DNA of 64,000 nucleotides from Candidatus Moraniibacteriota bacterium (GCA_013334575.1 JAAXXG010000003.1:12699-76698), one strand, 5' to 3'; counted from the first letter of the stretch, positions 27,323-53,632 are shown. Notes: generated by a model not told the origin, from the letters alone. Numbers and translations are program-made.

Positions 27323-27476
27323 TGCTCTGTAGAAATCATCTCTGCATCTCAGGCTTTCCGAGCTGTCATCCCGGGCTCGACCCGGGATCCAAGACATAGA
27401 TTCCGGCTCTTGCCCGGCGTATGCCCGGGTGGAGGCCGGAATGACCATCCTAGGACGGCTCTTTTCTGCAGCGCAT
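27323..27476 (-). repeat. M2 MITE-like structured element, inverted orientation
   Basis: It is the reverse complement of the 32012-32165 core (GTCATCCCGGGCTCGACCCGGGATCC...CCGGAATGAC). It is bounded by CTGTAGAAA/TTTCTGCAG-type termini. Confidence 0.6.
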
Positions 27477-27683
27477 GTCTGATTCCTTTTCGTTTATGCC
27501 GTTTCCGTTTCGACGGAAACGGATTAAAATCGCACGTATTTCCAGCGCTTCATTGAGATTGTTCGAAGCGGAGTATGCGACATGGCCTGAGAATGCGTGG
27601 AGGTAGGACATGATAACTGCTAAAATGAAATCAAAGGAAAACAAGAGCATTCGGAATACGTTATAGTACCTGAAAGGCAACAT

Positions 27684-28397
27684 ATGAAAACGATCATGCA
27701 AAACCGATCCTTTTTGTCCGGAATCCGTTTCGCGGCTTTCGCGTCCGCCGTTTTGACGTTCACGCCGACGCCGTTTTCCAGTCACGCATCCGCAGCAACC
27801 ACATGCTCTCCAACGGTTACGGTCACGGATACCGGGAAAACGTCCGTCAAACTCAAGGTCGCCTGTAGCAATCTCGTCAGTACGAAAGTAAGCGTGCGGT
27901 TATTGGCTACCAATGAGGAAACCGGCAAGGATTCGAAAAAAACGGTTACGGCGAAGCTTGGAAAAAAAGGGACGGTGACCATTAAACTCTCGGGACTCGA
28001 TTCGGCCACGGGCTATTCCTTCAAGGCGAAAGTGAAAAAGAACGGAGGTGCGTACGGGGCCTATTCCGATGTGGTCGAGGCGACGACCGAAGGGGCTGAT
28101 TACGATGTATCGATCGAAAAGATTAGCAGCATTACCGAGAGCTCCGCGAAACTCCGCATCACCTGCGAAGATCTCGAAGATGAGGATGTGACGCTGATGG
28201 TCGCGTACAAGAAAAAGACGTCCTGGTCGACGAAGACGTATACGCTGACTTTGGACGGCGACGGCGAAGGGGTGGTCACGGTCGACGGACTCAAGTCGGA
28301 TACGGCATACAGTTTCAAGACGAGGATCAAGAAGGACGATGATTCGATTTATTCCCGGTATTCGGAAGAGAAGTCGGCGACGACCGACGAAGATTGA
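27684..28397 (+). CDS. Secreted protein with two fibronectin-type-III-like repeats
   Basis: It has a signal peptide. Two ~90-aa repeats end GLDSATGYSFKAKVKK and GLKSDTAYSFKTRIKK. Confidence 0.55.
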   Translation: MKTIMQNRSFLSGIRFAAFASAVLTFTPTPFSSHASAATTCSPTVTVTDTGKTSVKLKVACSNLVSTKVSVRLLATNEETGKDSKKTVTAKLGKKGTVTIKLSGLDSATGYSFKAKVKKNGGAYGAYSDVVEATTEGADYDVSIEKISSITESSAKLRITCEDLEDEDVTLMVAYKKKTSWSTKTYTLTLDGDGEGVVTVDGLKSDTAYSFKTRIKKDDDSIYSRYSEEKSATTDED

Positions 28398-28419
28398 GGT
28401 ACTCATTGAACGAACACAT

Positions 28420-28770
28420 ATGACCGCTTCGCCTAGAGGGCTCTCGTTCGCCGCCGCAGGCATCGTCATGACGGCACTCATTATCGGCGGATGGTATGTC
28501 GTATTCAGAGATACCGATACGGTGAAAACCGGCTCGGTCGGCAAGGAGCGGGTTTCGGAAACGACTTCGCAGACGACTCCCTCAGCCGCTGTTTCCTCCG
28601 GGTCGGAACCGCAGGAGAAGGAGCTTCCGGCGAAAAGTACCGGCGTGCTCGTCGGTGCGTCGGCAATCCGGGATGAGTCCGACGATTCCGCCGCCCGAAA
28701 AACACAGGAGGATGATGAGGCCGATACCGATGACGGTATCTCCGTCGATGTGGAGACCGAGGAGGAATAA
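28420..28770 (+). CDS. Single-pass membrane protein with Ser/Thr-rich and acidic C-terminal tail (hypothetical)
   Basis: It starts MTASPRGLSFAAAGIVMTALIIGGWYVVF. An upstream GTG/ATG at 28339 is an alternative start. Confidence 0.4.
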   Translation: MTASPRGLSFAAAGIVMTALIIGGWYVVFRDTDTVKTGSVGKERVSETTSQTTPSAAVSSGSEPQEKELPAKSTGVLVGASAIRDESDDSAARKTQEDDEADTDDGISVDVETEEE

Positions 28771-28972
28771 CGGATTAGAATATTTCGTGGTTCCTACCGA
28801 TGATACCGAGCCTCTTTTTCTCGGGATAAGAAGGGGTCGGTATCGTTTATGAATGGCGGGTCCGGAGAGGGTGTCAGAAGCTTTTTTCTTGTCGCCGAGA
28901 GGCGATAGCACCGACGCGCCTGCCTGGCAACGGGTCAGGCGTTTTTCGATAAAACCCCTAAATTCCCGAAAA

Positions 28973-29038
28973 TCCTTGCCTTTTCGCCCAGGAAGGGTAT
29001 GGTGGAGGTGTTGGTGTCTAAAAAAGGTACCTGTCCAC
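28973..29038 (+). repeat. M1 promoter/leader repeat, copy 3
   Basis: It reads TCCTTGCCTTTTCGCCCAGGAAGGGTATGGTGGAGGTGTTGGTGTCTAAAAAAGGTACCTGTCC. Confidence 0.6.
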
Positions 29039-29167
29039 TTTTCTGTTTTGACCCCTTTTCTGTTTCGCAGGGGAATCCCTCTTTCTGCGAAAAACTCATA
29101 AGGGAGAGACTCGTGGTCTTCATGGAATGAGCAATCTAAATTGCCCGATTTGCATTTGGCATAAAGT

Positions 29168-30190
29168 ATGGAAAAATTCACCCGATTAACTCCGGAAAAT
29201 AAAACCTCAGGTATTGATAGGATACTGGGATTAGATCCTGAAGACGAGGTCGATATAAAAAAATATTTTTCGGAACTTTGTAAAAGAGAAAGCTTGGAAG
29301 TGTTTGCAAAAGAACCAAGTTTGGAGTTTAAAGAAATTTTTCCTAGCATAAATTCTTGTTTGCGAGAATTCCTTGAAGGATATGGAATAAGGCCTTTGGA
29401 TGTTTCATTATCTCAAATAGTATTTTTGGACAAGGAAAAACTTTCAGAAGGGCAGAGGTTATATTTTGAAAAAAGAAAAACAAACGCCTTTTATCATTCA
29501 AGATCGCAGAAAATCGTTCTTTTTAAGGATTGGAACGGGAATTCCAAACTAGCCGTTCTTCATGCGCTGGTGCATGAAATGGTTCATATGCAAGCTTTTG
29601 AAGCTTGGCAAAAAATTCCCAGGGAGCAAGAAGATGAAAGGGATTTCATTGTAAGTAAAGGTGATAGAAGTATACGTCTCGATCTCAGGAGATTAGGATT
29701 CAGGATGGTAGATAAAGATAGAGAAATTACGTATTTTCATGATTTAGATGAGGCGATTACCACGGAATTAACGATGCGTTTTGACTGGCAATATCTCGAA
29801 AGATTCCCCGAATTATCGGAGGAAATCAAAGAAAGAAGAGGTGTCATATTGGCGTACGCAAAAAGAAATAACTCTTCATTTGAACAAGAGAGAAGACATG
29901 TCGCGGAAATCGAGCATGAGCAATTGGAAAATGGAATAAAAAAAGTTAAGATAAATGGATATTCTTACGATCAAGAGCGAGAAAAATTCTTGATGCTGCT
30001 TGATGGGATATATAAAAATAGCTCGGAACGATTCGCCTCACCTGAAAATGTTTTCAAAGAATTTGCAACAGCGGCATTGACTGGAAATGTTTTGACAATC
30101 GCTCGCGTTATTGAGGGCGTGTATGGAAAGGGGTCTTTTCGCTATCTAGGCGAGAAAACGGCCGATAAAAGAAGCTCCGATACTGAATAG
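29168..30190 (+). CDS. Putative zinc metallopeptidase (HExxH), low-GC gene
   Basis: It has the motif AVLHALVHEMVHM (HEMVH). The gene is markedly AT-rich compared with its flanks. Confidence 0.4.
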   Translation: MEKFTRLTPENKTSGIDRILGLDPEDEVDIKKYFSELCKRESLEVFAKEPSLEFKEIFPSINSCLREFLEGYGIRPLDVSLSQIVFLDKEKLSEGQRLYFEKRKTNAFYHSRSQKIVLFKDWNGNSKLAVLHALVHEMVHMQAFEAWQKIPREQEDERDFIVSKGDRSIRLDLRRLGFRMVDKDREITYFHDLDEAITTELTMRFDWQYLERFPELSEEIKERRGVILAYAKRNNSSFEQERRHVAEIEHEQLENGIKKVKINGYSYDQEREKFLMLLDGIYKNSSERFASPENVFKEFATAALTGNVLTIARVIEGVYGKGSFRYLGEKTADKRSSDTE

Positions 30191-30567
30191 GTGGCCTATT
30201 CTCTTGAAATCATAAGATTGGATAGGCTCTTGAAAAAACTTTACAATGCGCAATATATTCGGGTTCCAGACCGAGGTAGTCCGCGCAGCGGGACAAGCGA
30301 CTCCGAGAGGGCCGCTTTTCCTCGCGGCGTTTCCGGCGGTTCGAAGGTGTCATTTCCGGCACAGAGGGACGAGCGATTCGCAGAGGGCTGTTTTTTCTTG
30401 CCGTTACGACATCGGCAGGCATCGTCGCCTGGAACCGGTTTTCCGGTTCCGGGAACGGGGTCTACAGTTGATATTTTCTCCGGGACGTGTTTTGCTGGAT
30501 CCGAGTCCTTTTTCGACAGTCCTTTCCAACTGTTTCCTGAAAACGGGAGACGCAGACAGAACGAATC

Positions 30568-30726
30568 ATGAATCAGAAGAAAACCGTATTCGCTTCCCTG
30601 GCGATCGTCGCCGTCGGGGTTTCCGGGTATTTCGCCGTCCGGGCGATCAGGCAGGCGATCGATATGGCGGGCGAGATGATCGCCTCGATTCCGTTCGCCT
30701 ATTCCTATGGCAGAAAGGAGGGGTAA
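30568..30726 (+). CDS. Small membrane protein (52 aa)
   Basis: MNQKKTVFASLAIVAVGVSGYFAV is a TM helix. A strong terminator follows at 30746-30780. Confidence 0.4.
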   Translation: MNQKKTVFASLAIVAVGVSGYFAVRAIRQAIDMAGEMIASIPFAYSYGRKEG

Positions 30727-30745
30727 GCTTCGGTCCCATGAAAAA

Positions 30746-30780
30746 ACGAGTGCACCCTCCGGCACTCGTTTTCTTTTTTT
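30746..30780 (+). terminator. Rho-independent terminator ACGAGTGC-accctccg-GCACTCGT followed by T9
   Basis: An 8-bp stem followed by a long T-run. Confidence 0.65.
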
Positions 30781-30854
30781 TGACGGAGGATCGGAAAAGG
30801 GCGTCGTATCCGAACAAGAGGGGACTGAACGGGACAAGTGTCTCCGGGATTCCT

Positions 30855-30926
30855 CCCGATTCTTGCTTTTCCGGCCCGGAGGGGTATGGTGGATATGTCA
30901 GTGTCCCATAAAAAAGGAACCTGACC
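30855..30926 (+). repeat. M1 promoter/leader repeat, copy 4 (variant B)
   Basis: It reads CCCGATTCTTGCTTTTCCGGCCCGGAGGGGTATGGTGGATATGTCAGTGTCCCATAAAAAAGGAACCTGACC. Confidence 0.6.
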
Positions 30927-31000
30927 TTTTTCTGCTCGTTCTTTTGTAAACCGACAGTCTTCGTAAGTGCGGAGATGGTGATCAATCCAAGGGAGGGAAG

Positions 31001-31765
31001 ATGAAAAACTGGGTTCTTGCGCCGCGACCATTCAACGGTTTCATGGTGTCTGTTACGGTCCTGCTCGGTTTTCATCTGACAGGACGGGATTGGAAGGAAG
31101 GATTTCCCTATTCAATAGTGGCGGCCATCCTGTATTCGGCTATCATCGTGTGGAACGATTACTGCGACCGCGAGATGGATCCTGCGAAGGGCAAACGATT
31201 CGCGAATGAACAGGGTGTCAGGTATCTTTCGTATGCCATTGTCTGGTGGGCGGTCTCACTCGCTTCCGTCGCGTGGCTCTGGATCGTACTCGGGTCGGGC
31301 CCCGGAATGCTCGCACTTGGTCTCGGGGTGTCCGGGTTTGGCTATACGTGGGCTCAGCGAAACGCGTTCGCGAAAAACGGACTGGTCGCGGTATGGACGG
31401 GGGCGGTAATGTTGTTTCCTGTGGTTTCCGGTGCGGACGTGATGCCGAAATCCCTGTGGCTGGTGGCTGTCCTGACACTTGCGAACTATGGCCGCGAAAT
31501 ACTGAAGGACGCTGAGGATGTTCATTGCGACACGGACAAGGACACCTTGGCGACGCGGTACGGTTCGTCGGTTTCTGCAATCGTCGCCTTGTTCCCGCTC
31601 GTGCTTGCGGCTGTCACGGCCGCAGTTGGCTTCGGGACAGCTGGTATCGTATATATCGTCTCATTTCTTGTCGCCGGGCTTCTCGGAGTGTGTGGACGGT
31701 ATCGTGAGTCCGTGACGTTTCTGAAGTACGGGTTGGCAATATCCGTTCCTGTCCTGTTCTTGTAA
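31001..31765 (+). CDS. UbiA-family aromatic/polyprenyl prenyltransferase
   Basis: It is eight-TM and carries the Asp-rich NDYCDREMD (NDxxDxxxD) motif. Confidence 0.65.
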   Translation: MKNWVLAPRPFNGFMVSVTVLLGFHLTGRDWKEGFPYSIVAAILYSAIIVWNDYCDREMDPAKGKRFANEQGVRYLSYAIVWWAVSLASVAWLWIVLGSGPGMLALGLGVSGFGYTWAQRNAFAKNGLVAVWTGAVMLFPVVSGADVMPKSLWLVAVLTLANYGREILKDAEDVHCDTDKDTLATRYGSSVSAIVALFPLVLAAVTAAVGFGTAGIVYIVSFLVAGLLGVCGRYRESVTFLKYGLAISVPVLFL

Positions 31766-31786
31766 TCATGAGGAGTCAGAAGAGGC

Positions 31787-31941
31787 ATGTCGAAAATCCG
31801 GCGTGCCTTTTCTCTTTTCATACCAAATCACTTTTTAGACGGAAAGAAAGACTTTCAAGAGCCTTTCTTTTTCGACGAGATCAGATTTTCGCGGTTACGG
31901 AAGGGAATTTTTCCGGTTTACGGGAGGAATCCTCTATCCTG
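31787..31941 (+). repeat. M0 repeat, copy 2
   Basis: It is a paralog of 27111-27250. Confidence 0.6.
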
Positions 31942-32011
31942 CCCGATTCTTGCCTTTTCGGCCCGGAGGGGTATGGTGGGGGTGTTGGTGTCTATAAAAA
32001 GGTACCTGACC
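31942..32011 (+). repeat. M1 promoter/leader repeat, copy 5
   Basis: It shares sequence with the other M1 copies. Confidence 0.6.
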
Positions 32012-32165
32012 TGCTCTGTAGAAAAGATCTTTGTAGGATTGTCATTCCGGCCTCCACCCGGGCATTCGCCGGGCAAGAGCCGGAATCTATGCCTTGGATC
32101 CCGGGTTTGACCCGGGATGACAGTACGGAAAATCTGAAACGCGGAGATGATTTCTACAGAGCATA
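32012..32165 (+). repeat. M2 MITE-like structured element, direct orientation
   Basis: Its termini are the inverted repeats CTGTAGAAA...TTTCTACAG. Internally it has two strong hairpins (ATTCCGGC...GCCGGAAT and ATCCCGGGtttgaCCCGGGAT). It is flanked by ACCTGACC on both sides. Confidence 0.6.
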
Positions 32166-32276
32166 CCTGACCCCTTTTCTGTTTTTGCGAGTCTTTCTTT
32201 TTCGACGAAACAGATTTTCGATATACAATGGAGGTATGAAGGAGGAGGATAAGCGAAATGGAAAGGATATTTCGAT

Positions 32277-33290
32277 ATGAGAGAAATTCCACGGTCTACG
32301 GAAAATAGGGAAGACCCGGTTTCTCCCTCGGAATCGTTCCTGAGGGAGTTCGTGTACGGAAACAGCGGCCTAAGCGAGTCCTCGAAAGCGTTTCTCGCGG
32401 AAAGGGTTGCCGTCGAAAAGCGTGGTCCATGGTCGGAAGCGGATTTTGTCCGGCGGGTCTACGAAAGCGGTGATCGGATAGTCGTCGAATTTCGGGATGG
32501 AGAAGCATATCTGTATCCTCCCTTGGGTATCAAGGCGGATGCTGACGATAATGCCGTAAGGGAAAAACGTTCCATGGAGCGGGACCTGAGGCCGATAGCC
32601 ACCACCGATTTTCAAAGGAAAATGACGGAAGTCGGTTTTGACGCTTCGGTTGTTGGGGAACTACTGAAACTCGTGCCGAGCTTGGGTCTGCGTGAAAACT
32701 CGGAAGCTCTGTTTCTTGGGCCTTCGAAGATGCCCCTTCAGTTTCTGGTCGCGAACGCGTGCGGTTCCGTAGAGGTTCTTGAGAAAAACGGCGAGCGTCG
32801 GGATTGGATTCGTGGTATGGCTGAATCGCTCGGAATTTCCGAAAAAATGAGGATCCGCGAACATGGAGAGGCAGAAATAGGCGCTGCTCGATTCGTGGAG
32901 GATTCGTATGATCTTATCGTCGCACTCAGCATACTCGATCTGGTCGGCGAGAGTCCCGAAGTCTACCGCCGTATGCTCAGGGCGGTGAGAGATGGAGGAA
33001 AGATAATAATCGGGCATCACGAGATGCTGTTCGGGGATCGGGAAAAATTGCTTCTCGAGCGGTATGCGGCAGACCTCAGGTACTCGGTTTTGGATCTCGG
33101 TATTTCGATCGATGACGGTCATGAACCGGGTGACCCATACTATAACCGGGAATCGTACCTGCTTCAGGTACTAAAACGAAAAGAGCGGAATGATACACCT
33201 TCGGGCGGGCGCCCCCGTGACCTTGTCGAGACATTACGTTTGTTTGCGGCGTTGGAAAGTCTGGGAGATGCCCGATCGCGGAAGGAATGA
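32277..33290 (+). CDS. Hypothetical protein (337 aa); weak class-I methyltransferase-like segment
   Basis: This long ORF has coding-like codon usage. YDLIVALSILDLVGESPEVYRRMLRAVRDGGKIIIG resembles the MTase motif III/IV region. Confidence 0.35.
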   Translation: MREIPRSTENREDPVSPSESFLREFVYGNSGLSESSKAFLAERVAVEKRGPWSEADFVRRVYESGDRIVVEFRDGEAYLYPPLGIKADADDNAVREKRSMERDLRPIATTDFQRKMTEVGFDASVVGELLKLVPSLGLRENSEALFLGPSKMPLQFLVANACGSVEVLEKNGERRDWIRGMAESLGISEKMRIREHGEAEIGAARFVEDSYDLIVALSILDLVGESPEVYRRMLRAVRDGGKIIIGHHEMLFGDREKLLLERYAADLRYSVLDLGISIDDGHEPGDPYYNRESYLLQVLKRKERNDTPSGGRPRDLVETLRLFAALESLGDARSRKE

Positions 33291-33349
33291 CATATTTTCG
33301 GAAAACGGCGGTATTCTTCGGAGAAAACGGACGGCGTATCGTTCCCTAG

Positions 33350-34228
33350 TCAATACCTTTGCATCACTTCTTCGGGTGTCTGGTACCCGATTCCCATATG
33401 AATCCGTTCCCCGTTGTAATACGGGAGGTATTTTGAAATTGCGTTTCTGAGCTTTGAAACGGAGCGTGGAACAAAGTCCAGGCACTCCTCCTGTATCGTA
33501 CGGTTGAACCGTTCCACATGCGCCTGATCGTTCGAGCGACGTTCCCTCGAGTGCCGGTGCGATATCCCGATTCGTTTCATCGCGTGCGTGAACCCGGTCG
33601 TGAACTCGGGTCCGTTGTCTGACTGGACCAACCGTATCTCAAACGGGGCCGATTCCCGGACCCGCCTCATGAACTCGACACTCTTTTTCGCCCCGATACG
33701 ATCCGTCGCCCAGGCAAAGCTCCACCTCGAGCAGAGATCAATCGCCGTATACACATAGACCCGTTCTCCCCTGGAAGACTGGAGGTGTATCGTATCGATT
33801 TCCACGAATGCTCCCGGATATGCGGCTTCCGGACGTCTCGTGTGGTCATGGGGTCGTTTCCAGGGAGAACGCTTCTTTGTCAGATGGCACCGGTCCAAGG
33901 TCCGCTGTACGGATGAGAGGGAAACCTTCATTCCGGCAGTCGTCAATTCATGATGGACCACCTGTCCGCACCGGTCATGTTCCAATCGTTTGTCGATGAT
34001 CGCCGAGACGATGTCTCGTGACAACGCTTTCGGATGATAGTGCGGCTTCGAAGACAGGGTCGGTATCGGTCCGACGTTCCGATGTTCCGCCTGCTTGGCC
34101 CACCGGATGATGGTGGACTGGTCATATCCGAAATATCTCGCCACTTCCCGGGAACTCTTTCCCGATCTGAGCATCTTCACCGCATCCCAGCGTACCTTCG
34201 GGATATTCGGGTTCGAGGAATATGCCAT
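33350..34228 (-). CDS. IS481-family DDE transposase (HTH plus rve integrase core)
   Basis: It has an N-terminal HTH (SSREVARYFGYDQSTIIRW) and an rve core with the D, D, E triad context (VEIDTIHL, YTAIDLCSRW, DNGPEF...HAMKRIGISHR). Confidence 0.75.
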   Translation of the reverse strand: MAYSSNPNIPKVRWDAVKMLRSGKSSREVARYFGYDQSTIIRWAKQAEHRNVGPIPTLSSKPHYHPKALSRDIVSAIIDKRLEHDRCGQVVHHELTTAGMKVSLSSVQRTLDRCHLTKKRSPWKRPHDHTRRPEAAYPGAFVEIDTIHLQSSRGERVYVYTAIDLCSRWSFAWATDRIGAKKSVEFMRRVRESAPFEIRLVQSDNGPEFTTGFTHAMKRIGISHRHSRERRSNDQAHVERFNRTIQEECLDFVPRSVSKLRNAISKYLPYYNGERIHMGIGYQTPEEVMQRY

Positions 34229-34277
34229 ATCTTTGCATGAGACGGGTCAGTCTAGCAGGTGATGCAAAGGTATTGAA
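33350..34277 (-). mobile_element. IS481-family insertion sequence (~0.93 kb) with 17-18-bp terminal inverted repeats (T)CAATACCTTTGCATCAC
   Basis: The left IR at 33350-33367 is the reverse complement of the right IR at 34259-34276. It encodes a single DDE transposase. Confidence 0.7.
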
Positions 34278-34282
34278 ACATT

Positions 34283-34311
34283 ACGAGGTCTTGACAAAAA
34301 AGACTATTTAA
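34283..34311 (+). promoter_or_regulatory. Sigma70-like promoter TTGACA-N17-TAATGT directly outside the IS right end
   Basis: A consensus -35 and a good -10 face the downstream 34460 gene. A structured leader follows. Confidence 0.5.
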
Positions 34312-34459
34312 GGTAATGTCTGTAACAGAATCTTTACATGGCTTTTCATCGATGGCCCATCCTATGCGAGTATTCGTCTCCGATGGGCCATCGACGAAAA
34401 CAATACTTCTGTCGCCCATGATGGCTGGTCGACGAAATTAGCTGAGAAAGGAGCTAATC

Positions 34460-35170
34460 ATGTATACGGAAAACTGTAATTTTAAGGTGGAGCTGCTCGT
34501 TCACGGGCGGCCTATAACGGAATACCTCCTCGGTGGTGACACGTTCGTCGAGGGACGGATGGGGTCGGAGTATGAGATCCGTATCACGAACTACAGCAGC
34601 AGAAATGCGGTCGCGGTCGTCAGCGTCGACGGTCTTTCCGTCATGAACGGCAAGCCCGCTTCCAGGGACGCTTCGGGGTACGTCCTCGAGCCGTTCGGGA
34701 ATGTCATCATTCCCGGCTGGCGTCTCAATAACGAAGGCGTCGCTCATTTCAAGTTCGGCGCGCTGCCGGAATCCTATGCCGAAAAGCAGGGAATGCCGGA
34801 GAATGTCGGGGCCATCGGCGTCGTCTTCTTCTTCGAGCGCAAGGCTCCGGAATTTCTGCCGAACTTCGATCTGCGGACAAAGGGGATTCGACCGCCGGTC
34901 ATGTACTCGGCGGCTCCGGGGTCGTACAGCGCGTCCATCGGTACCGAATTCGGCAGGCGGACCGAACACCGTGTCACGAATGTCAATTTCGACCGTGAGC
35001 CGTCTCCGGCGGCGGAGCTTGTGCTCCGCTACGACGAGGCGAGCAATCTCGAGTCGCGTGGCATCAGGCTGATCGGTTCGCATGTCGGCAGGGATGCGGT
35101 CCGTGAGGCGAGTCCGTTTCCCGCCGATATCGGCTGCGTCCCTCCCAGGGGATGGCACAGGAGAAAGTAA
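34460..35170 (+). CDS. Hypothetical protein (236 aa)
   Basis: A GGAG ribosome-binding site precedes the ATG. No recognised domain. Confidence 0.45.
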   Translation: MYTENCNFKVELLVHGRPITEYLLGGDTFVEGRMGSEYEIRITNYSSRNAVAVVSVDGLSVMNGKPASRDASGYVLEPFGNVIIPGWRLNNEGVAHFKFGALPESYAEKQGMPENVGAIGVVFFFERKAPEFLPNFDLRTKGIRPPVMYSAAPGSYSASIGTEFGRRTEHRVTNVNFDREPSPAAELVLRYDEASNLESRGIRLIGSHVGRDAVREASPFPADIGCVPPRGWHRRK

Positions 35171-35245
35171 GGCGATCGAATATTGAAATATCGAAGAGCT
35201 CGCAATGCGGGCTCTTTAATTTTACCCGGTACGAAAAAAGCCGGA

Positions 35246-35304
35246 TACCTTTTCAGCTCGGAAGGGTATTATGGGGGTGTAGGCGTCTAAAAAAATACCT
35301 GACC
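35246..35304 (+). repeat. M1-like degenerate repeat, copy 6a
   Basis: It reads ATACCTTTTCAGCTCGGAAGGGTATTATGGGGGTGTAGGCGTCTAAAAAAATACCTGACC. Confidence 0.45.
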
Positions 35305-35322
35305 TCTTTTCCGCTCCCCGAC

Positions 35323-35386
35323 TCCTTGCCTTTTCGGCCCGGAGGGGTATGGTGGAGGTGACGGTCTTTGCAAAAGGAATCCAGCC
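35323..35386 (+). repeat. M1 promoter/leader repeat, copy 6b
   Basis: It reads CTCCTTGCCTTTTCGGCCCGGAGGGGTATGGTGGAGGTGACGG... Confidence 0.55.
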
Positions 35387-35461
35387 TCTCTTTTTTGGTT
35401 GCGGGTGCTGAGTATGCCGCGTCGATATTTTGACGGAGTCGCACTTCCTGGAAATATCCGT

Positions 35462-36112
35462 ATGAAACTATATCTTTCATCATACAAACTTGGGAACGAT
35501 ATCGAGGCCCTGAAAGGGCTTGTCCCCGCCGGGAACAGGAAGACGGCATTCATCCCGAACGCTCTCGATTTTTCCACTGATTCCGAACGGCGGGAGAAGA
35601 GCGAACGATCCGATGTCGAGGATTTGTCCGCGTTGGGTCTCGAGGTGGAACGATTGGATCTGAGGGACTATTTCGGCCTGCAGTCGGAACTGGAAACGAA
35701 GCTCGGTGATTTCGGCGTCATCTGGGTACGCGGCGGAAACGCGTTCGTACTTCGGAAGGCGATGAAGAAAAGCGGTTTCGATGAAATACTCCGGCGTTTC
35801 GTGGGGAAGAAGGAATTATTGTACGGGGGATATAGCGCGGGAATCTGCGTGTTGTCACCAACGTTGGAAGGGATAGACCTTGTCGACGATCCTTATGTAG
35901 ACCCGTACGGAGACCCTTCCGCGGCGTCGTTCGAAGGCCTCGGAATCGTTGACTATTCCATAGTCCCTCATTATCGGTCCGATCATCCGGAATCGGCGAG
36001 TATCGAAAAGGTCGTCGAATATCTTGAAGAAAAAGGGATCCGATATAGGACGCTCCGGGACGGGGACGTGATAATCTCGGAGGTTTCGGAGGAGTCCGCT
36101 GTGCGGGTCTGA
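35462..36112 (+). CDS. Peptidase S51 (dipeptidase E/cyanophycinase-like), paralog 1
   Basis: It has the VRGGNAFVL motif and the nucleophile context YGGYSAGICV. An upstream in-frame ATG at 35399 is an alternative start. Confidence 0.65.
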   Translation: MKLYLSSYKLGNDIEALKGLVPAGNRKTAFIPNALDFSTDSERREKSERSDVEDLSALGLEVERLDLRDYFGLQSELETKLGDFGVIWVRGGNAFVLRKAMKKSGFDEILRRFVGKKELLYGGYSAGICVLSPTLEGIDLVDDPYVDPYGDPSAASFEGLGIVDYSIVPHYRSDHPESASIEKVVEYLEEKGIRYRTLRDGDVIISEVSEESAVRV

Positions 36113-36191
36113 ATGATGGTCGGGTGCGTCTGAGCGAGGAATCCGATTTAGGAGGTGGGGAATCGTGGAGAAGCATGCCGAGAGCTGAACT

Positions 36192-37058
36192 ATGGAATAT
36201 TCGGACCTGGTACGCGACGTATTTTCGGATGGGGAGAAAAAGCGGTTCATAACCGACAGTCTTCGCGACTCGATGACCCGTCTCGGGTTCTCTGGCGCTC
36301 TGCGCGACGAATTCCTGCGAAACATCGATACGCTTACCGTTGCCGATTTTATCGGGCGACATAAAAACGAGCTCCAGCGGGTTCAGAACGAACATTTTTT
36401 CGGGGAGTTGGTGCCGGTATATTTCAAAGAGAACGTGGTTCCCGAAATACCGGCCGGGGGCAAGGTGCTTGATCTGGGATGCGGTCCCGCCATCCTGATC
36501 CGCTGTCTCATCGAACGGGGAACGAACCCGGAAATCGTCGGTTCGGATATCGCGGCCGACCCGCGCTGGAGCGGCATCGTTCCCGAAGATGCGCGGCTCG
36601 AAGTGGTACGGGAGTCCGAATTTCTTCCATATCTGAAACGGGAGCAGCCGGACCATGTCGCGGCGACGTGGGTATTCCATCACATGGAATACGCGGAGCA
36701 GGAACGATACCTGTCCGCGCTTCACAACGCCCTCAAGCCGGGGGCGACGCTTGTCGTGTTGGAAGACTCGTATTCGGAGGTCCTCCTGCCCGAGTCCGGC
36801 AGAGAGCGAGCCCTGGCGTTCATGCGGTGGAGCCCCGAGGACCGGCACAAAATCATGGGAGCGCTCGACTGGATTGCCAACCGGATTTTCAGCATGCGGA
36901 CCTCGATGCCGGTGCCGTTCGCGTATAGGACCCTGGAAGGCTGGGCAAAAGTTTTCGAGGAAGCCGGATTTTCGGTGAAAAAGACCAGATTCCTGGGATT
37001 TCCAGACAACAGGGATATACATACTCCCCAGAGCCTGATCGTCGCCGAGAAGCGATAG
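36192..37058 (+). CDS. Class I SAM-dependent methyltransferase
   Basis: Motif I is VLDLGCGPA. Post-I is VGSDIA. Motif II/III is LVVLED. Confidence 0.65.
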   Translation: MEYSDLVRDVFSDGEKKRFITDSLRDSMTRLGFSGALRDEFLRNIDTLTVADFIGRHKNELQRVQNEHFFGELVPVYFKENVVPEIPAGGKVLDLGCGPAILIRCLIERGTNPEIVGSDIAADPRWSGIVPEDARLEVVRESEFLPYLKREQPDHVAATWVFHHMEYAEQERYLSALHNALKPGATLVVLEDSYSEVLLPESGRERALAFMRWSPEDRHKIMGALDWIANRIFSMRTSMPVPFAYRTLEGWAKVFEEAGFSVKKTRFLGFPDNRDIHTPQSLIVAEKR

Positions 37059-39953: not shown

Positions 39954-40128
39954 AGAAACTCACTCGCGTTATCAGGTCTTTGAGCGCGTGCTGTTAGGTG
40001 TTAGGGTAGGTCAGGCACAAGTAAATTAACTTGTGCGTTAGTGTAAACCGCTTTGAATGTCGGCAAGAAAATGGGTCAGTTACTCTTTCGAAGAGGATTT
40101 TTGAACCCATTGGCGGCTCGTGACCCGG

Positions 40129-40385
40129 AACGTGTTTCCTGATAGAGTGGTGAAAATACGTAGCGGGAAATAGTGATGAAGCGTATCCGGACCATCGTCC
40201 TTACCGGCGGGCCGTGCGGCGGCAAGAGCACGGTCCTGCGGGCCTTGCGCGAGGAATTCGGCGACCGGCTGGTGCCGGTGCCGGAGGCGGCGACCGTCCT
40301 CTTCGAGGGTGGTTTTCCGGTTCCCGGCCGCGATATCGAATGGAGCGAGGAGTGGCGGGAGGCCTTCCAACCGGCCGTGTTACAT
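40129..40385 (+). repeat. Copy 1 (~257 bp) of the promoter plus 5' end of the 43917 P-loop kinase gene
   Basis: It is about 95% identical to 43862-44120 and then diverges. Confidence 0.8.
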
Positions 40386-40415: not shown

Positions 40416-40518
40416 GGGGATATGTTACATCTTTTTTAGGCTTATATCGGTTTCTTTTGCTTTAATAAGGCATTTGTGCTACGATCTCGTTACATGATTT
40501 CAATCCTCTAGCACATCT

Positions 40519-41661
40519 ATGCGTGATAACCTGCATATCCCGAAACCCGATTTCGGGTCCAATCTCACTCGGCTGGTCGTCAAATTGGACCATCTGCGGT
40601 CACAGAACCTGTCCGGGAGCACTCCGGCGCATATCTTCTTCCAACTCAAGGAGATCTTTCACCTGCTCGAAAGCCTCGGCTCGACGCGCATAGAGGGAAA
40701 TCATACGACCTTAGCGGAGTACATCGAGACGAAGATCACCCCGGACGAACATCCGACGGAAGGGATCCGGGAGATACAGAACAACGAGGAAGTCATGGAT
40801 TTCGTCGAGAAGACCGACACGACCGGTCCGATTACGCACGCCTTCATCCGTGAAATCCAAAGCATGATCGTCCGCGACCTCTCGACAAACAGGGAGGGCG
40901 ATCATACTCCGGGACAATATCGGAACAAGAACGTCGCAATCAGTCATTCCGAGCATACGCCGCCGGACTTTGTCCGGGTCCGGGAATACATGGACGAGCT
41001 GGTCGACTTCATAAATGCTGAGAATGAACCGCAGTTCGATTTGCTGAAGACTGCGATCATGCATCATCGGTTCGCCTGGATACACCCGTTCGGAAACGGG
41101 AACGGTCGGACCGTGAGAGCGTTGACGTACGCGATGCTTATACGCCAGGGATTCAATCTGGAGAAGGGACGTCTGGTAAATCCGACCGCAGTCTTTTGTG
41201 TCGACAGGAACCGGTACTACGAGATGCTCGAGAAGGCTGATTCGGGGAATGATGCTGACGTGCTCGCATGGTGCGAATATGTCTTGGACGGACTCGATCG
41301 TGAAATCACGAAAGTGAACCGGCTTACCGATTATGCCTATCTGAAGGACGTCATCCTGAAACCCGCCATCGGGATATCTTTCGAAAGGAATTTCATCGCG
41401 GAAAAAGAGCGGAAAATTCTTCTGATAGCGGTCGATAAGCCGCTTTTTCAGGCGGGAGATATCGCTCATCTGTTCCCGGGCGTCGCGCATACCGAGGTAT
41501 CCCGATTCCTCCGCGGGATGCGGGAGAAGAAACTTATCCGGCCAATCGCGCCGAATGCCAGGAAATATTCGATGGAAATCGCAAACGGGTATCTGTTGCG
41601 AGGCATCATGAAGGCACTCGATGAGAACGACTTTCTGCCCCTGAAGGGCGAGGCGGAGTAG
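40519..41661 (+). CDS. Fic-family protein (AMPylase/Fido domain)
   Basis: It has the Fic motif HPFGNGNGRTVRAL (HxFx[DE]GNGRxxR) and a C-terminal wHTH-like region. Confidence 0.85.
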   Translation: MRDNLHIPKPDFGSNLTRLVVKLDHLRSQNLSGSTPAHIFFQLKEIFHLLESLGSTRIEGNHTTLAEYIETKITPDEHPTEGIREIQNNEEVMDFVEKTDTTGPITHAFIREIQSMIVRDLSTNREGDHTPGQYRNKNVAISHSEHTPPDFVRVREYMDELVDFINAENEPQFDLLKTAIMHHRFAWIHPFGNGNGRTVRALTYAMLIRQGFNLEKGRLVNPTAVFCVDRNRYYEMLEKADSGNDADVLAWCEYVLDGLDREITKVNRLTDYAYLKDVILKPAIGISFERNFIAEKERKILLIAVDKPLFQAGDIAHLFPGVAHTEVSRFLRGMREKKLIRPIAPNARKYSMEIANGYLLRGIMKALDENDFLPLKGEAE

Positions 41662-41741
41662 AAACCCGTAAAAGAACGACCTGGTCCGGAAAAGGTGTCA
41701 GGTGCTTTTGACTGATGTCAGATGGCCGAGGGGCGTAAACG

Positions 41742-41846
41742 CCGTGACCCGGACCGCGTTTCCTGATAGAGTGGGGAAAATACGTAGCGGGAATCGATGA
41801 AGCGTATCCGGACTATCGTCCTTACCGGCGGGCCGTGTAGAGCCCT
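41742..41846 (+). repeat. Copy 2 (~105 bp) of the kinase promoter plus first ~30 codons
   Basis: It reads CCGTGACCCGGACCGCGTTTCCTGATAGAGTGGGGAAAATACGTAGCGGGAATCGATGAAGCGTATCCGGACTATCGTCCTTACCGGCGGGCCGTG. A TAG follows. Confidence 0.8.
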
Positions 41847-41891
41847 TTATGAATAGGTGGGGGTTGATTGAGTACTTAGTAAGGTATCTTT

Positions 41892-42464
41892 ATGATGAAG
41901 TTTGATGAGCCTCCGCGCGGCGGATCTTTAGAGGAGTGCTCTAAAGAGTCGTATATGAATCCTCGTTCGGATAGGCCGAAGTACAAGGGGCGTGATAGGG
42001 AAATCGGAGAGCGAGAAGCTAAACGACGACTCGCCATTCTTCCCAAGTTGGAAAAGATTTCTCGCGACTTCTGTGCGAAGCATTCCATAGAAAATTGTCC
42101 GATTTTGATTCCAAAGGGTTCTGCCGATGTCGGCATGAGTACTCCAGAGAGTGATTTTGATGTGGCGGTTGTTGTTAGCTCGCCTCATATTTTCCTGCAG
42201 GATCCGAACGTATGGAGGCAATATGTATCTATGCTTGAGGTGGCTGCTGATGAGGACTTCCGAGTGGAGCTACATCTTATTTCTCGATCGGAATCTGGTC
42301 TCCGTTTCGGAACGGAATTTTCCAATCATATTTCAAATGCTGAGTCGGATTCCGGATTCGGGGATTTATTTAAGAAGTTTGCTGAGTTTAAGATAGGAAA
42401 GGCGGATTGTATAAAGGATAAAAATCATGGCCAAGATACGTCCGACACGAATTCGATGGGGTAG
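41892..42464 (+). CDS. Minimal nucleotidyltransferase (MNT, Pol-beta superfamily)
   Basis: It has the motif KGSADVGMSTPESDFDVAVVV (GS...[DE]xD). It is a low-GC gene. The true start may be the internal ATG at 41955. Confidence 0.65.
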   Translation: MMKFDEPPRGGSLEECSKESYMNPRSDRPKYKGRDREIGEREAKRRLAILPKLEKISRDFCAKHSIENCPILIPKGSADVGMSTPESDFDVAVVVSSPHIFLQDPNVWRQYVSMLEVAADEDFRVELHLISRSESGLRFGTEFSNHISNAESDSGFGDLFKKFAEFKIGKADCIKDKNHGQDTSDTNSMG

Positions 42465-42505
42465 TTTTGAGTCTGTGTATTTTAGGATAAACCTGTCGCG
42501 GAACC

Positions 42506-42604
42506 CGTGACCCGGACCGCGTTTCCTGATAGAGTGGGGAAAATACGTAGCGGGAATCAATGAAGCGTATCCGGACTATCGTCCTTACCGGCGGGCCGTG
42601 CGGC
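42506..42604 (+). repeat. Copy 3 (~100 bp) of the kinase promoter plus first ~30 codons
   Basis: It is a near-identical paralog of 41742-41846. Confidence 0.8.
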
Positions 42605-42691
42605 AAAAAAGGGCCGGTCACCTCTTTTGCCCGGAGTGGGATCGCGATAGTGTCGGTATCGATAAAAGTTGCATGACACTTTTCTGCAGGA

Positions 42692-43795
42692 ATGTTTTTG
42701 GAACTTATTCGATCAATTTTTATGGAAAAATTTTTTACACAAGAAGTCAATGCGACCGGAAAGAGTATTGAGAAAGGGAGCGATTTTTTTGGGAGAATCG
42801 AAGAGCACTCTCGCGCCTTTGATCGTGAGACTGCTGATACGCGCAAGCGTTCTCGGGATGAAATACGAGAGCACTGGCGTGAGACGGAATGGAAAATCGG
42901 GGATACGACAGTGCATGCCATTGGCGTGATGCATGTGCCGGAGACGTTTTTGGAGTATCGCAAAGAAATCGAGAACGCAATCAAAGAAAGCGATATTGTT
43001 GTGAATGAATTCGCTCCCGAAGCGTTGGGTTTGTATGACAAGGAATCCGTACCGCACCTGCAACGGACGGCATCCCTGTTCAATGAGCATTATAATTTGG
43101 AACAATTACGGCAGATATATTTGAAGAACGAACGAGAATGGAATACGGGCATGTTTCATCATGAGATAGAGCTTCTTACGGCGAAATATGATAAAGATAT
43201 GGCGCTTATGGATCTCAATATGACCAAGGATTGTGAAGATTTGCTTCAGGGGAGCTCTTTGTATGCTCATGCTGCGGAACAGTCTGATGAGAATGCCGCA
43301 ACGCTCAAAAAACTCGGTTTGTACGCCGGGGCGGCCGCTTCAGTTGCCGGCGCCGTGGCGCAGAAACCCATGTCACGGAGGAAATTTTTGCGGCTTGCCC
43401 TTCTCGGTACCGGAGCGACGATAGCCGGAATAACACCAAAGCTGACTGAAACCCCGCCTCAAACAGCCATTAAGAAAGAGATGTCGATGGAGGACAAGCG
43501 GGTCGGCATGGTATTGCGTGATTTGCAAATCGCCGATTCTTTGCAGCGTCTTGCGGGGCTCGGGTATAAAAATATCACGTTTATTTACGGAGTCGGTCAT
43601 CTGTCCGGAGTCGGGAAACATCTGCATAATCCGGAAGAGTTTAGAAACATGTTGGATGAAAAAAAGGAACAACTTCATGCGTGCAATTCCGACGCCTTTC
43701 GCATATACCGTCTTGCGGACGGAGAAAATACGTCGGAAAAATTCGTCGCTTCGGACAAAAAGGTTTGGAAGCGCATCTCACCTGCAAGGGTTTAA
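42692..43795 (+). CDS. TraB/GumN-family protein
   Basis: The N-terminal motif reads TTVHAIGVMHVPETF (hxhVGxxHV). The C-terminal motif reads IYGVGHLSGV. It is a low-GC gene. Confidence 0.45.
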   Translation: MFLELIRSIFMEKFFTQEVNATGKSIEKGSDFFGRIEEHSRAFDRETADTRKRSRDEIREHWRETEWKIGDTTVHAIGVMHVPETFLEYRKEIENAIKESDIVVNEFAPEALGLYDKESVPHLQRTASLFNEHYNLEQLRQIYLKNEREWNTGMFHHEIELLTAKYDKDMALMDLNMTKDCEDLLQGSSLYAHAAEQSDENAATLKKLGLYAGAAASVAGAVAQKPMSRRKFLRLALLGTGATIAGITPKLTETPPQTAIKKEMSMEDKRVGMVLRDLQIADSLQRLAGLGYKNITFIYGVGHLSGVGKHLHNPEEFRNMLDEKKEQLHACNSDAFRIYRLADGENTSEKFVASDKKVWKRISPARV

Positions 43796-43916
43796 TTTCA
43801 GAAAACGTACCTTGTACTTCTCGAATGAAGTATCAGGGTCGAATTTTCGGGAGGCAAGGAACCGTGACCCGGACCGCGTTTCCTGATAGAGTGGGGAAAA
43901 TACGTAGCGGGAATCG

Positions 43917-44549
43917 ATGAAACGTATCCGGACCATCGTCCTTACCGGCGGGCCGTGCGGCGGCAAGAGCACGGTCCTGCGGGCCTTGCGCGAGGAATTC
44001 GGCGATCGGCTGGTGCCGGTGCCGGAGGCGGCGACCGTCCTCTTCGAGGGCGGTTTTCCGGTTCCCGGCCGGGACATCGAGTGGAGCGAGGAGTGGCAGG
44101 AGGCGTTCCAACCGGCCGTGCTGGCGCTGCAGGCCGCGCTCGAACAAAGTCACGCGCTCTTGGCCGCGGACCGGGACGTGGTGCTCGTGTGCGACCGGGG
44201 CCGGCTCGACGGGGCGGCGTATACCGAGGGCGGCGTCGGGGCGTTCTGCCGGATCCACGGGCTCGACGAGACCGAGACGCACGGACGGTACGACCTGGTG
44301 ATCCATCTGGAGTCGCTTGCGACGAGCCATCCCGAACGCTACGGGACCGAGGGGAACGCCGCGCGCTACGAGTCGCTCGAACAGGCGCAGGCGCTTGAGC
44401 GCGCGACGCGGGAGGCGTGGGGGAATCATCCACGGCGGAAAATGATCGGCGGGGAGCGGGGGATGGAGGGAAAGATCGAGGATGTGGTCGCGGTCGTGCG
44501 CGAACTGCTCGGCGAGGGCTCGGAATATTCCGATAAGGGACAACGATAA
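43917..44549 (+). CDS. AAA_28/NadR-like P-loop NTPase (predicted nucleoside/nucleotide kinase), full length
   Basis: The Walker A is LTGGPCGGKST. It is 210 aa. Its promoter and 5' end exist in three further upstream copies. Confidence 0.65.
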   Translation: MKRIRTIVLTGGPCGGKSTVLRALREEFGDRLVPVPEAATVLFEGGFPVPGRDIEWSEEWQEAFQPAVLALQAALEQSHALLAADRDVVLVCDRGRLDGAAYTEGGVGAFCRIHGLDETETHGRYDLVIHLESLATSHPERYGTEGNAARYESLEQAQALERATREAWGNHPRRKMIGGERGMEGKIEDVVAVVRELLGEGSEYSDKGQR

Positions 44550-49712: not shown

Positions 49713-49727
49713 TTGAACGCTTGAAAC

Positions 49728-52158: not shown

Positions 52159-52171
52159 CGGTCCGAAACCC

Positions 52172-52251
52172 CGGGGCGTCCCCGGCAACACGTTCATCGA
52201 GGTGAAATAATTGAACGCTTGAAACGGAAAGCGGCCCTCGGGCCGTTTTTC
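52172..52251 (+). repeat. Duplicate of the rubrerythrin 3' end plus terminator (~80 bp)
   Basis: CACGTTCATCGAGGTGAAATAATTGAACGCTTGAAACGGAAAGCGGCCCTCGGGCCGTTTT is identical to 49691-49752. Confidence 0.8.
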
Positions 52252-52416
52252 ATATCGTGAAACCGCCGGGTCGCCCGTATCCGGTCCCGGCCGGAGACGG
52301 TGAAGAACCGCCGGCGCCTTTACTTCCTCTTCGGAAGGGAGTAGAAATACGGTACACCGGCATATCCTGCCGACGGTCGTCGTGATCTCCTTTCCTGAAC
52401 GGATCACCCGAATCGT

Positions 52417-53418
52417 ATGTGGCCGAAATCGTTCCGGGTACTGGCCCGGGGAGGTGTCAGGATTTTCTGCGACGGGATGACCTGTCCGAGGCATATCGGT
52501 CGGGACGTGTTCGTGACGCTGGCGTTCGCGCTCGGCGCTGTCGGATTCCTGTATTCTGCGGGAAGTATCGGGATCGGAAAGCCCGGAGCTGCCGACGTGT
52601 CCGGCGACACTGCGGGCTCCGGAGCGACGGCCATGCTTCTTTCCGAAGAGGACGTCGTCGCCGAAGTGGAGCGGATCGTAGCGCCGGTCGATACCGGTTC
52701 GTGGAAGCCGTACCGCAACGACTACTACGGATTCGAACTCCGGTATCCGGCGGGGTGGCAGACGCCTTCCGGGCAGATCGCCCCGAGGGGGTCGAAGTGG
52801 GAATACCGATTCCGGTTCAGGAAGCCGGTTCCGGCAGGCGGGACCTATGTCGGGTTCGATGTCGTCGTCTACGATGTCGCCAAGGCGAAGGAACTGTCCG
52901 GGACGGACGAATATCCGGCGCTCCGGAACGAGGAGGCGAAGGGTACGGAGCGGTGCGCGACCATCGACCGATACGTCGTCGATGCCGGGGACTATCCCCT
53001 GAGCGAGATCTACGTTCCCCCGGGTGACGACTGCTATCGGCCGACGCTGTTCCTGTCCCTCGTCCGTGACCGGTATATCTACGATGTCGTCCCGATCACC
53101 GGGGAGAGTGCCGTTTCCGGTCCCGATCCGAGGGCGTCGATCAATATGGACCTTCCCGAACTGTATTCCGTCGGTTCCTCATTCCGGCTTATCGATATCG
53201 TGCGTCCGAAACCCGTACCTCCGAAGCCTCGGATCACCGCTCCGCACCCCGTGTCCTATAAGAAGGTGAACGGTCGGCTGGTCTGCGCGAAGAAACACGA
53301 TCATCCGTCGAAAAGCGGAAAAGGGAAGCATCTCGACATGGAGTGTTGCCTGGATCCCGACGAGTATCCGAATCCCTGGTGCTACTACCCGCCGGAGAAA
53401 TACGGGAAGTACCTCTGA
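52417..53418 (+). CDS. Hypothetical membrane-anchored exported protein with Cys/Pro-rich C-terminus
   Basis: The ORF is 333 aa. An internal start at 52477 gives an N-terminal TM helix. Confidence 0.45.
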   Translation: MWPKSFRVLARGGVRIFCDGMTCPRHIGRDVFVTLAFALGAVGFLYSAGSIGIGKPGAADVSGDTAGSGATAMLLSEEDVVAEVERIVAPVDTGSWKPYRNDYYGFELRYPAGWQTPSGQIAPRGSKWEYRFRFRKPVPAGGTYVGFDVVVYDVAKAKELSGTDEYPALRNEEAKGTERCATIDRYVVDAGDYPLSEIYVPPGDDCYRPTLFLSLVRDRYIYDVVPITGESAVSGPDPRASINMDLPELYSVGSSFRLIDIVRPKPVPPKPRITAPHPVSYKKVNGRLVCAKKHDHPSKSGKGKHLDMECCLDPDEYPNPWCYYPPEKYGKYL

Positions 53419-53462
53419 TCGCTTTACGGCCGAGGCGGAGGGGGGGTAGCGCTTGCAGAGGG

Positions 53463-53479
53463 CTAAAAAGTACCTGACC
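53463..53479 (+). repeat. Truncated M1 tail (CTAAAAAGTACCTGACC) preceding an M2 element
   Basis: It shares the M1 3' motif. Confidence 0.4.
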
Positions 53480-53632
53480 TGCCCTGTAGAAAAGACTTTT
53501 GTAGGATTGTCATTCCGGCCTCCGTCCGAGCATGCGCCGGCCAAGAGCCGGAATCTATGTCTTGGATTCTGGCTTTGACCCGGGATGACCGTACGGAAAA
53601 TCTGAAACGCGGAGATGATTTCTACGGAGCAT
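53480..53632 (+). repeat. M2 MITE-like structured element, direct orientation
   Basis: It is about 90% identical to 32012-32165, including the CTGTAGAAA / TTTCTACGG termini. Confidence 0.6.

Follow-up and report, generated by a model that had tools for sequence, protein, structure and literature searches.

Downstream of a tRNA-Ser gene, the 64,000-nucleotide stretch of Candidatus Moraniibacteriota DNA analysed here (GCA_013334575.1 JAAXXG010000003.1:12699-76698; hereafter the window) carries an island of mixed GC content whose co-oriented genes are preceded by a repeated intergenic unit, M1; each unit consists of a terminator-like hairpin, a promoter-like stretch (TTGCCT-N16-TATGGT) and a leader ending in AAAAGGTACCTGACC. 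Inside M1 sit three copies of a second element, M2, which is 152-153 nt long, ends in inverted repeats and encloses two hairpins. A preliminary description of this DNA had proposed that M2 could be a non-autonomous transposable element, and insertion sequences (ISs) with matching termini, a target-site duplication and empty insertion sites support that proposal. M2 is very probably a MITE (miniature inverted-repeat transposable element) built of two unrelated parts, namely a shell of the IS5 family and a core formed by a pair of hairpins of the CGTC/NTS type.

The copies that the preliminary description had placed near 32012 and 53480 (direct) and 27323 (inverted) were recovered at essentially these coordinates by reading of the sites, repeat search, alignment and profile search alike. 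They are 90.8%, 86.8% and 81.6% identical in pairwise alignment and score nhmmer E-values of 1e-50 to 1e-55 over the 64 kb, in which the profile search found no further full copy. A stretch at 10321-10405 that had been taken for a diverged relative holds only the inner hairpins (10322-10410) and no terminal repeats, and is better described as a bare hairpin pair. The terminal motif CTGTAGAAA is real but had been drawn too short: the inverted repeat is TGCTCTGTAGAAA, matched at 13/13 positions in the 32012 copy, and resumes as ATC at positions 16-18. Both nested GC hairpins are present as described, the second one having decayed in the 53480 copy. The expected lack of coding capacity was also confirmed; open frames across the element are spurious read-throughs only, and an M2-encoded peptide, compared with 5.8 billion proteins in order to find further copies through such spurious frames, gave no match.

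Folding, suggested earlier as a check, gave structures far more stable than those of shuffled sequence, with -37.1 kcal/mol for the DNA (z -6.4) and -75.7 kcal/mol for the RNA (z -7.7); there are no compensatory changes among the three copies. At the gathering threshold, Rfam recognised only tRNAs in the whole window, and in E-value mode over 31700-32400 its best matches over M2 reached 15.8-19 bits, compared with gathering scores of 50-90. A scan for sigma-70 promoters and terminators called no terminator in M2, nor did it call the promoter-like element of M1.

M1 insertion sites and probable IS5-family ends

The three copies occupy one and the same register of the M1 leader (Table 1). The motif said to precede them all, ACCTGACC, indeed lies before the 32012 and 53480 copies, whereas the inverted copy follows ACCTGATT. 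At 32012 the motif recurs on both sides, which had been likened to a target-site duplication and is a genuine one: the 9-bp TACCTGACC flanks this copy perfectly, and four M1 paralogs are uninterrupted at the same point, where they read AAAAGG(T/A)ACCTG(A/T)CC and then directly NCTTTTCTG. As the site is unbroken and the 9-mer is present in a single copy, these paralogs represent empty sites. In the common register, the flanks of the other two copies still match at 7/9 and 6/9 positions. The duplication is centred in a symmetric AAAAG-N11-CTTTT context, and the extra T that makes it 9 rather than 8 bp keeps its side of M1 even where M2 is inverted, which indicates that this T belongs to the target and not to M2. 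The 3' halves of M1 include a type A, with a filled unit at 31949 and an empty one at 25161 that are 95% identical, and a type B, with a filled unit at 27258 and an empty one at 30862; every M2-bearing 3'-half subtype thus has its empty counterpart.

A scan of metagenomes with the 20-mer at the right end of M2 (GAGATGATTTCTACNGAGCA) returned 8 loci (numbered with the prefix L here and below), and in 8/8 the match abuts unrelated flanking DNA, as expected of the terminus of an element. An IS with matching terminal repeats, the search for which had been proposed in the preliminary description, was recovered in the form of full elements, probably of the IS5 family, with a DDE transposase. The 20 nt that close M2 (32144-32163) recur without a change at the right end of a 1080-bp IS at L127 (1697-2776), which is bounded by TGCTCTGTAGAAACCATC... 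and ...GAGATGATTTCTACAGAGCA and encodes a 332-aa transposase. This protein matches the Pfam family DDE_Tnp_1 (PF01609) above cutoff (E 1.2e-15, 58 bits) and the NCBIfam IS5 model NF033579 below its curated cutoff of 140 bits (E 1.6e-35, 123 bits); its best annotated relatives, on plasmids, are called 'IS5 family transposase' at ~30% identity. A protein search with it yielded 109 relatives, six of which were looked up on their contigs. Both ends, ~1.06-1.08 kb apart, were located in five ISs (L127, L131, L132, L133 and L135), the transposases of the latter four being 47-61% identical to that of L127; L134 shows a right end only, and more distant homologs (33-35% identity; L136/L137, L138, L139) show similar motifs near both ends of the gene. 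The termini of the five are inverted repeats of the form (G/T/A)GCT(C/T)TGTAGAA(A/T), or (G/T/A)GCTCTGTAGAAA(T/C)CATC in the full elements, and L131, L132 and L135 lie between perfect 8/8 target duplications. Two further loci are themselves MITE-like: L124 and L125, of 197 bp and 132 bp, have the same ends as M2 and different interiors. Neither the IS end searched against plasmids nor the right-end 20-mer searched against viral contigs gave a match, and three transposase homologs sourced from NCBI, looked up as leads to a parental IS within the host, proved without exception to belong to other metagenome assemblies.

Table 1. Features of M2 and its insertion sites in the window (flanks are given left / right of the insertion point)
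Feature	Coordinates	Strand	Sequence or flanks	Remarks
M2 copy A, filled site	32012..32163	+	AAAAGGTACCTGACC / TACCTGACC-CCTTTTCTG	152 nt; best preserved of three; nhmmer E 6e-55
M2 copy B, filled site	53480..53631	+	..TACCTGACC / TTCCCGACC..	flanks 7/9; left arm of hairpin 2 decayed
M2 copy C, filled site	27323..27475	-	..AACCTGATT / TGTCTGATT..	flanks 6/9; inverted relative to M1
Left terminal inverted repeat, copy A	32012..32029	+	TGCTCTGTAGAAAAGATC	16/18 against IS-clade terminus GGCTCTGTAGAAATCATC
Right terminal inverted repeat, copy A	32146..32163	-	reverse complement TGCTCTGTAGAAATCATC	
Target-site duplication, left copy	32003..32011	.	TACCTGACC	
Target-site duplication, right copy	32164..32172	.	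TACCTGACC	9/9
Core hairpin 1	32041..32086	+	GTC-ATTCCGGC[27-nt nested loop]GCCGGAAT-C	CGTC/NTS-type unit, loop enlarged
Core hairpin 2	32097..32121	-	GTC-ATCCCGGG-TCAAA-CCCGGGAT-C	canonical CGTC/NTS-type; 8-bp stem from AT, 5-nt loop; head-to-head with hairpin 1
Bare head-to-head CGTC/NTS-type hairpin pair	10322..10410	.		without M2 ends; upstream of tRNA-Ala
Empty M1 target site	25209..25223	+	AAAAGGTACCTGACC / ACTTTTCTG	no M2
Further empty M1 sites	29022-29036, 30912-30926, 35290-35304			read as 25209-25223; one copy of the 9-mer

The window has an IS of its own at 33350-34276 (927 bp, with a 292-aa rve-type transposase), whose ends, TCAATACCTTTGCATCAC, are unrelated to the termini of M2 and which was rejected as its parent. 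Among the 16 members of its protein cluster are many fragments at contig ends, from metagenome-assembled genomes (MAGs) of Moranbacteria, so this IS is taken to be multi-copy in that lineage.

Two proteins of the window are entered at NCBI under a Candidatus Moranbacteria bacterium MAG. A sibling contig, from GCA_013336155.1, is 99.9% identical to 30859-36290 of the window and includes the 32012 copy of M2; it lacks 29046-30858 (L121 936-1011), a segment of 1.8 kb with a gene of ~37% GC at 29168-30190, and the junction falls within the M1 core common to the units at 28975 and 30862. Gene cassettes bounded by M1 thus differ between close strains. Five exact-protein look-ups of window genes led to contigs for two of them, with no difference in the presence or absence of M2 among those, and Logan contigs of the same organism (L120, L122) break inside M2.

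Other repeats accompany this architecture. Repeats of the tRNA-Ser gene (24982-25069) involve 24865-24902, 25015-25107, 30280-30322 and 30356-30398: partial copies precede the gene, and its 3' end recurs with the terminator ~5.2 kb downstream. They resemble the repeats that mark the attachment sites of integrated islands. Another family of intergenic leaders that are repeated, with no relation to M1 or M2, occupies 40119-44120 (58-205 nt, 83-96% identical) and includes four 58-nt copies starting at 40119, 41743, 42506 and 43863. Two repeat pairs of 93-96% identity lie at 49677-49751/52175-52249 and 57814-57919/59095-59200, the first ending in a GC hairpin and a T-run. Near the bare hairpin pair, the 3' half of the tRNA-Ala gene is duplicated directly downstream (10525-10579 and 10584-10638, 82%).

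The hairpin core, its relatives and its shells

Within the proposed composite, the outer ~28 and ~42 nt of M2 would be the ends of an IS5-family IS and the inner ~81 nt would be a core foreign to the ISs of this clade, each of its units built of GTC, an 8-bp stem starting with AT, a loop, the complementary stem and a C. This build is that of the repetitive extragenic palindromes (REPs) described by Di Nocera et al. (2013) as CGTC-tagged, which have a CGTC or TGTC tag, stems of 8-9 bp from AT and loops of 4-5 nt and occur mostly as head-to-head dimers; these pairs were described as having no dedicated transposase (PMC3733652). In M2 the tagged units read TGTC-ATTCCGGC and TGTC-ATCCCGGG, the first being GGTC in copy C. 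While the loop of unit 2 measures 5 nt, that of unit 1 is a nested 27 nt, compared with 4-5 nt in the CGTC-tagged REPs. A GTC ahead of the palindrome and a C directly behind it occur in both units of copies A and C and in unit 1 of copy B. The tags face outward in M2, in the bare pair of the window and at L030, a locus of another Ca. Moranbacteria MAG that holds an 82-nt core at 87% identity without M2 ends.

A scan for the core with the pattern GTCATTCCGGC-N20-40-GCCGGAATCTA, using one genome per species, returned at least 119 loci in many phyla, against ~1-2 matches expected by chance according to our own estimate; the long-loop form of unit 1 recurs in at least 119 loci. Among the matches listed are Bacteroidota, Planctomycetota, Chloroflexota, Desulfobacterota, Proteobacteria, Fibrobacter, Ignavibacteria and ~10 MAGs of the candidate phyla radiation (CPR). 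A second, convergent hairpin lies within ~90 nt in 59 of the 122 matches listed; it consists of GTC, a stem of 6 bp or more that starts with AT, a loop and the complementary stem, with many different stem sequences. Two long-loop hairpins of the CGTC type with a different stem (TGTCATTGCGAGG...CCGCAATC) also occur at L130 (2189-2241 and 3607-3655), a contig on which an end of a second IS with M2-type termini lies.

The class to which the core appears to belong has a protein partner. The Neisseria repeat dRS3 has been extended to the 28-nt NTS, to which single-domain GIY-YIG proteins (Ssn) bind in its single-stranded form and which they cleave; binding depends critically on the C that follows the palindrome, cutting by SsnA on the three bases ahead of the palindrome, and an NTS that is split and rejoined by hybridisation is still cut (PMC11893778). 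By inspection, the M2 stem differs from the NTS consensus at several positions. Single-domain GIY-YIG open reading frames of 84-95 aa, recognised by the Pfam GIY-YIG model, were found in four of the motif loci (L056 1545-1829, L065 ~2252-2518, L082 ~4125-4391 and L117 2889-3140). The clearest case is L056 (Melioribacter), where hairpins lie on both sides of the gene; at L065, in a Fibrobacter MAG, the gene lies between motif matches at 1840 and 2755, and in both loci the flanking motif is GTCATTCCGGC..GCCGGAATC. The relatives of these proteins form a large family, whose identities of 65-77% across Bacteroidota, Ignavibacteria, Cyanobacteria and Dehalococcoidia suggest that horizontal transfer has been frequent. 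No GIY-YIG gene was found in the 8 kb of L030, and a PDB search with an Ssn-like protein gave no match.

The same core is also enclosed by shells other than that of M2. In the Desulfobacteraceae MAGs GH14 and AUK187 it lies in an element of 172-173 nt with ends GGCCTTGATCATCGTTTCGGCC (L004, L015, L021, L037, L069, L076), which has perfect 8/8 duplications in 6/10 copies examined and in which many contigs end. In a Chromatiaceae MAG (FCS_M_Gamma_047.1) and a relative, it lies in inverted-repeat elements of 137-208 nt with ends TA(A/G)GGAGnCTCTGATTAATTCG and TA at start and finish (L007, L026, L027, L035, L058, L072, L097, L113), some copies having an extra insert inside the second hairpin. The shells seen around the core are thus three: the IS5 type with 8-9 bp duplication in CPR, one with 8-bp duplication in Desulfobacteraceae and a TA type in Chromatiaceae. 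Because the core occurs within other shells and none of the recovered clade ISs has its hairpins, M2 has the appearance of a resident hairpin pair that was enclosed by joined IS ends, and not of an IS with an internal deletion.

In the mechanism that would follow from such a composite, the TGCTCTGTAGAAA..ATC termini would be bound by a DDE transposase acting in trans, which would excise M2 and paste it into a staggered cut of 8-9 bp, which would give rise to the TACCTGACC duplication; M2 is presumably mobilised in this way in its present host. If M1 drives transcription, M2 would be co-transcribed as a long hairpin in the 5' leader of the downstream gene and may affect its expression. The core may be bound and cut by an Ssn-type single-strand nuclease.

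Taken alone, M2 would be an ordinary MITE in the genome of a candidate phylum; its value lies in its composition, a dRS3/NTS-class hairpin pair bounded by recognisable IS5-type ends with a clean target duplication. The route by which CGTC repeats spread has been open since their description (PMC3733652), and its connection with a protein, the Ssn nuclease, is of recent date (PMC11893778). The presence of the core in at least two other unrelated shells, and in bare form in many phyla, offers a concrete and testable route of multiplication, and extends the motif to lineages that neither study names. The three independent shell families suggest hitch-hiking; that CGTC/NTS-type pairs have spread largely inside MITE shells, as their cargo and with shells of unrelated IS families, is a tentative idea, rather unlikely as a general account, but if true it would mean that hitch-hiking seeds Ssn-nuclease target sites near genes in many phyla, CPR included. 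Locally, the presence of M2 singles out the M1 leaders as a place prone to recombination and insertion within a variable gene island.

The proposed composite MITE and other explanations

Several observations weigh against the composite MITE. The M2 copies are only three and all lie at the same position of M1, two of their three duplications are degenerate, and no polymorphism for the presence of M2 was found, the sole sibling assembly that covers the 32012 site also having it. The ISs of the clade make duplications of 8 bp, while the M2 register is 9 bp, and they have no target sequence in common (ACGCCTTC, CCAACCGC, CTGCCGGC), so that the family gives no reason to expect strict specificity for a site. 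No clade transposase was found in the window by tblastn. All named members of the clade come from archaea (Methanomassiliicoccales, Woesearchaeota, Diapherotrites), while the host of M2 is a CPR bacterium; an archaeal IS clade and a MITE in such a host may reflect cross-domain IS traffic. As for the core, the published SRM expression (PMC11893778) has no match in the window, M2 hairpins included, and neither a regular-expression search nor tblastn detected a GIY-YIG gene there. The membership of M2 in the NTS/SRM class thus holds by architecture and key positions only.

The explanation that competes best, to which a substantial minority chance is accorded, agrees that M2 came from elsewhere and differs as to its history: M2 would have entered M1 a single time, its copies having arisen through duplication, recombination or gene conversion of M1 and its inversion through its own terminal repeats, so that it would now be an immobile relic without any choice of target. 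The common register of all copies and the lack of a shared target in the IS clade fit such a history, as does the recombinogenic nature of M1 units, the segment missing from the sibling MAG lying exactly between two M1 cores. Moreover, the 5' parts of two M2-bearing M1 units are each other's closest relatives (D3 89%, D8 74%), and the decay of two duplications and one hairpin suggests age. The 3' halves tell against it: those that bear M2 belong to two subtypes, each with an empty counterpart (25161, 30862), and the duplication is centred in a symmetric sequence, as a target favoured by a symmetric transposase complex would be. Inversion through the 13-bp repeats could have taken place, yet it adds a step that has not been observed. 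The paired empty subtypes and the symmetry of the target favour repeated insertion of M2 into M1. The preliminary description had M2 inserted at the same M1 site in either orientation; the positions and orientations are as it said, while the insertions need not have been independent.

The hairpin pair could instead be the mobile part, as in the REP doublets known as REPINs, moved as single-stranded DNA by an Ssn GIY-YIG or RAYT-type enzyme, with the outer repeat a mere extension of the stem. The core is indeed a head-to-head hairpin dimer, bare pairs exist in this lineage (10322-10410; L030), the motif flanks Ssn-like genes at L056 and L065, and the arrangement NTS-ssnA-NTS has been noted as IS-like (PMC11893778). 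This remains improbable, since M2 is flanked by a 9-bp direct duplication and its outer repeats equal the termini of ISs with a DDE transposase. Single-strand transposition of the IS200/IS605 type is not known to yield a flanking 9-bp direct duplication. The window contains neither an Ssn nor a RAYT gene, and Ssn is not known to have transposition activity.

The preliminary description had also considered a structured RNA within the M1 leader. M2 does lie between the promoter-like element of M1 and the start codon, the predicted RNA fold is very stable, and effects on mRNA stability are known for MITEs that are co-transcribed with the genes beside them (reviewed in PMC3733652). Selection of M2 as a cis-regulatory or small RNA of the leader (for instance as attenuator, stabiliser or RNase III site) is nevertheless more improbable still: one copy is inverted relative to the leader, M2 is absent from 4 of ~7 M1 leaders, Rfam has no match to it, the copies show no compensatory changes and that at 53480 no longer has an intact hairpin 2, and the stems are not directly followed by a T-run. 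The suggestion of a dedicated structured RNA accordingly lacks support.

Finally, the co-oriented genes of mixed GC at 25-37 kb, each preceded by M1, and the one cassette that differs between sibling MAGs recall a cassette array in which M2 would be an attC-like recombination site, but this is hardly credible, as M2 is found at 3 junctions only, its ends do not by eye resemble the RYYYAAC/GTTRRRY core sites of attC, the cassette junction maps to M1 and not to M2, and no tyrosine recombinase family appeared among the window proteins submitted to Pfam and NCBIfam (a subset of the open reading frames).

Comparison with known systems

The composite MITE finds its closest parallel for the shell in the bacterial MITEs derived from IS5-family elements with IS903-group-like ends. 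Like them, M2 is ~150 nt long, non-coding and located beside genes, has a target duplication of 8-9 bp, and ends in termini identical or near-identical to those of full ISs with a DDE_Tnp_1 transposase (L127, L131, L132, L133, L135). IS903B, of the IS5 family, has the inverted repeat GGCTTTGTTGAATAAATC and a 9-bp direct repeat (PMC10569121), and the clade terminus GGCTCTGTAGAAATCATC matches that repeat at 13/18 positions. Unlike in these MITEs, the interior of M2 is not a deletion derivative of an IS.

Other small repeats share part of this organisation. As in the RAYT-mobilised REPINs, two inverted REP hairpins form one larger hairpin in a non-coding, multi-copy element; in contrast to REPINs, the tag of M2 is of the CGTC type and not GTAG, and a target duplication together with DDE-type IS ends is found in M2 but not in them. 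The Correia/NEMIS elements and NIMEs of Neisseria are likewise small inverted-repeat elements beside genes that are co-transcribed into hairpin RNA, and NIMEs combine dRS3 hairpins with other repeats. However, Correia elements have other termini, a TA duplication and no dRS3 pair as core, and NIMEs have no IS-type ends with duplications as their borders. With the NTS (CGTCATTCCCGCGMAVGCGGGAATCYRG, PMC11893778), M2 shares the hairpin architecture, the GTC that precedes the palindrome and the C that follows it, while its stem core is CCGG compared with CCGC in the NTS; the exact M2-type motif flanks the 95-aa single-domain GIY-YIG genes of Melioribacter and Fibrobacter MAGs.

The core itself is closest to the CGTC-tagged REPs, which include the Neisseria dRS3 and the Rickettsia RPE-4/6 (PMC3733652): M2 has the TGTC/CGTC tag, the 8-bp AT-initiated stems, the short tail and the head-to-head dimer with tags outside, and differs in the 27-nt nested loop of unit 1 and in its CPR host, a group outside that study. 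A composite of shell and dimer like that of M2 is seen in Halothiobacillus neapolitanus, where CGTC-1 dimers always lie within a 41-bp palindrome and no empty palindromes occur (PMC3733652); in M2, the shell can be identified as IS ends with a target duplication, which was not reported in that description.

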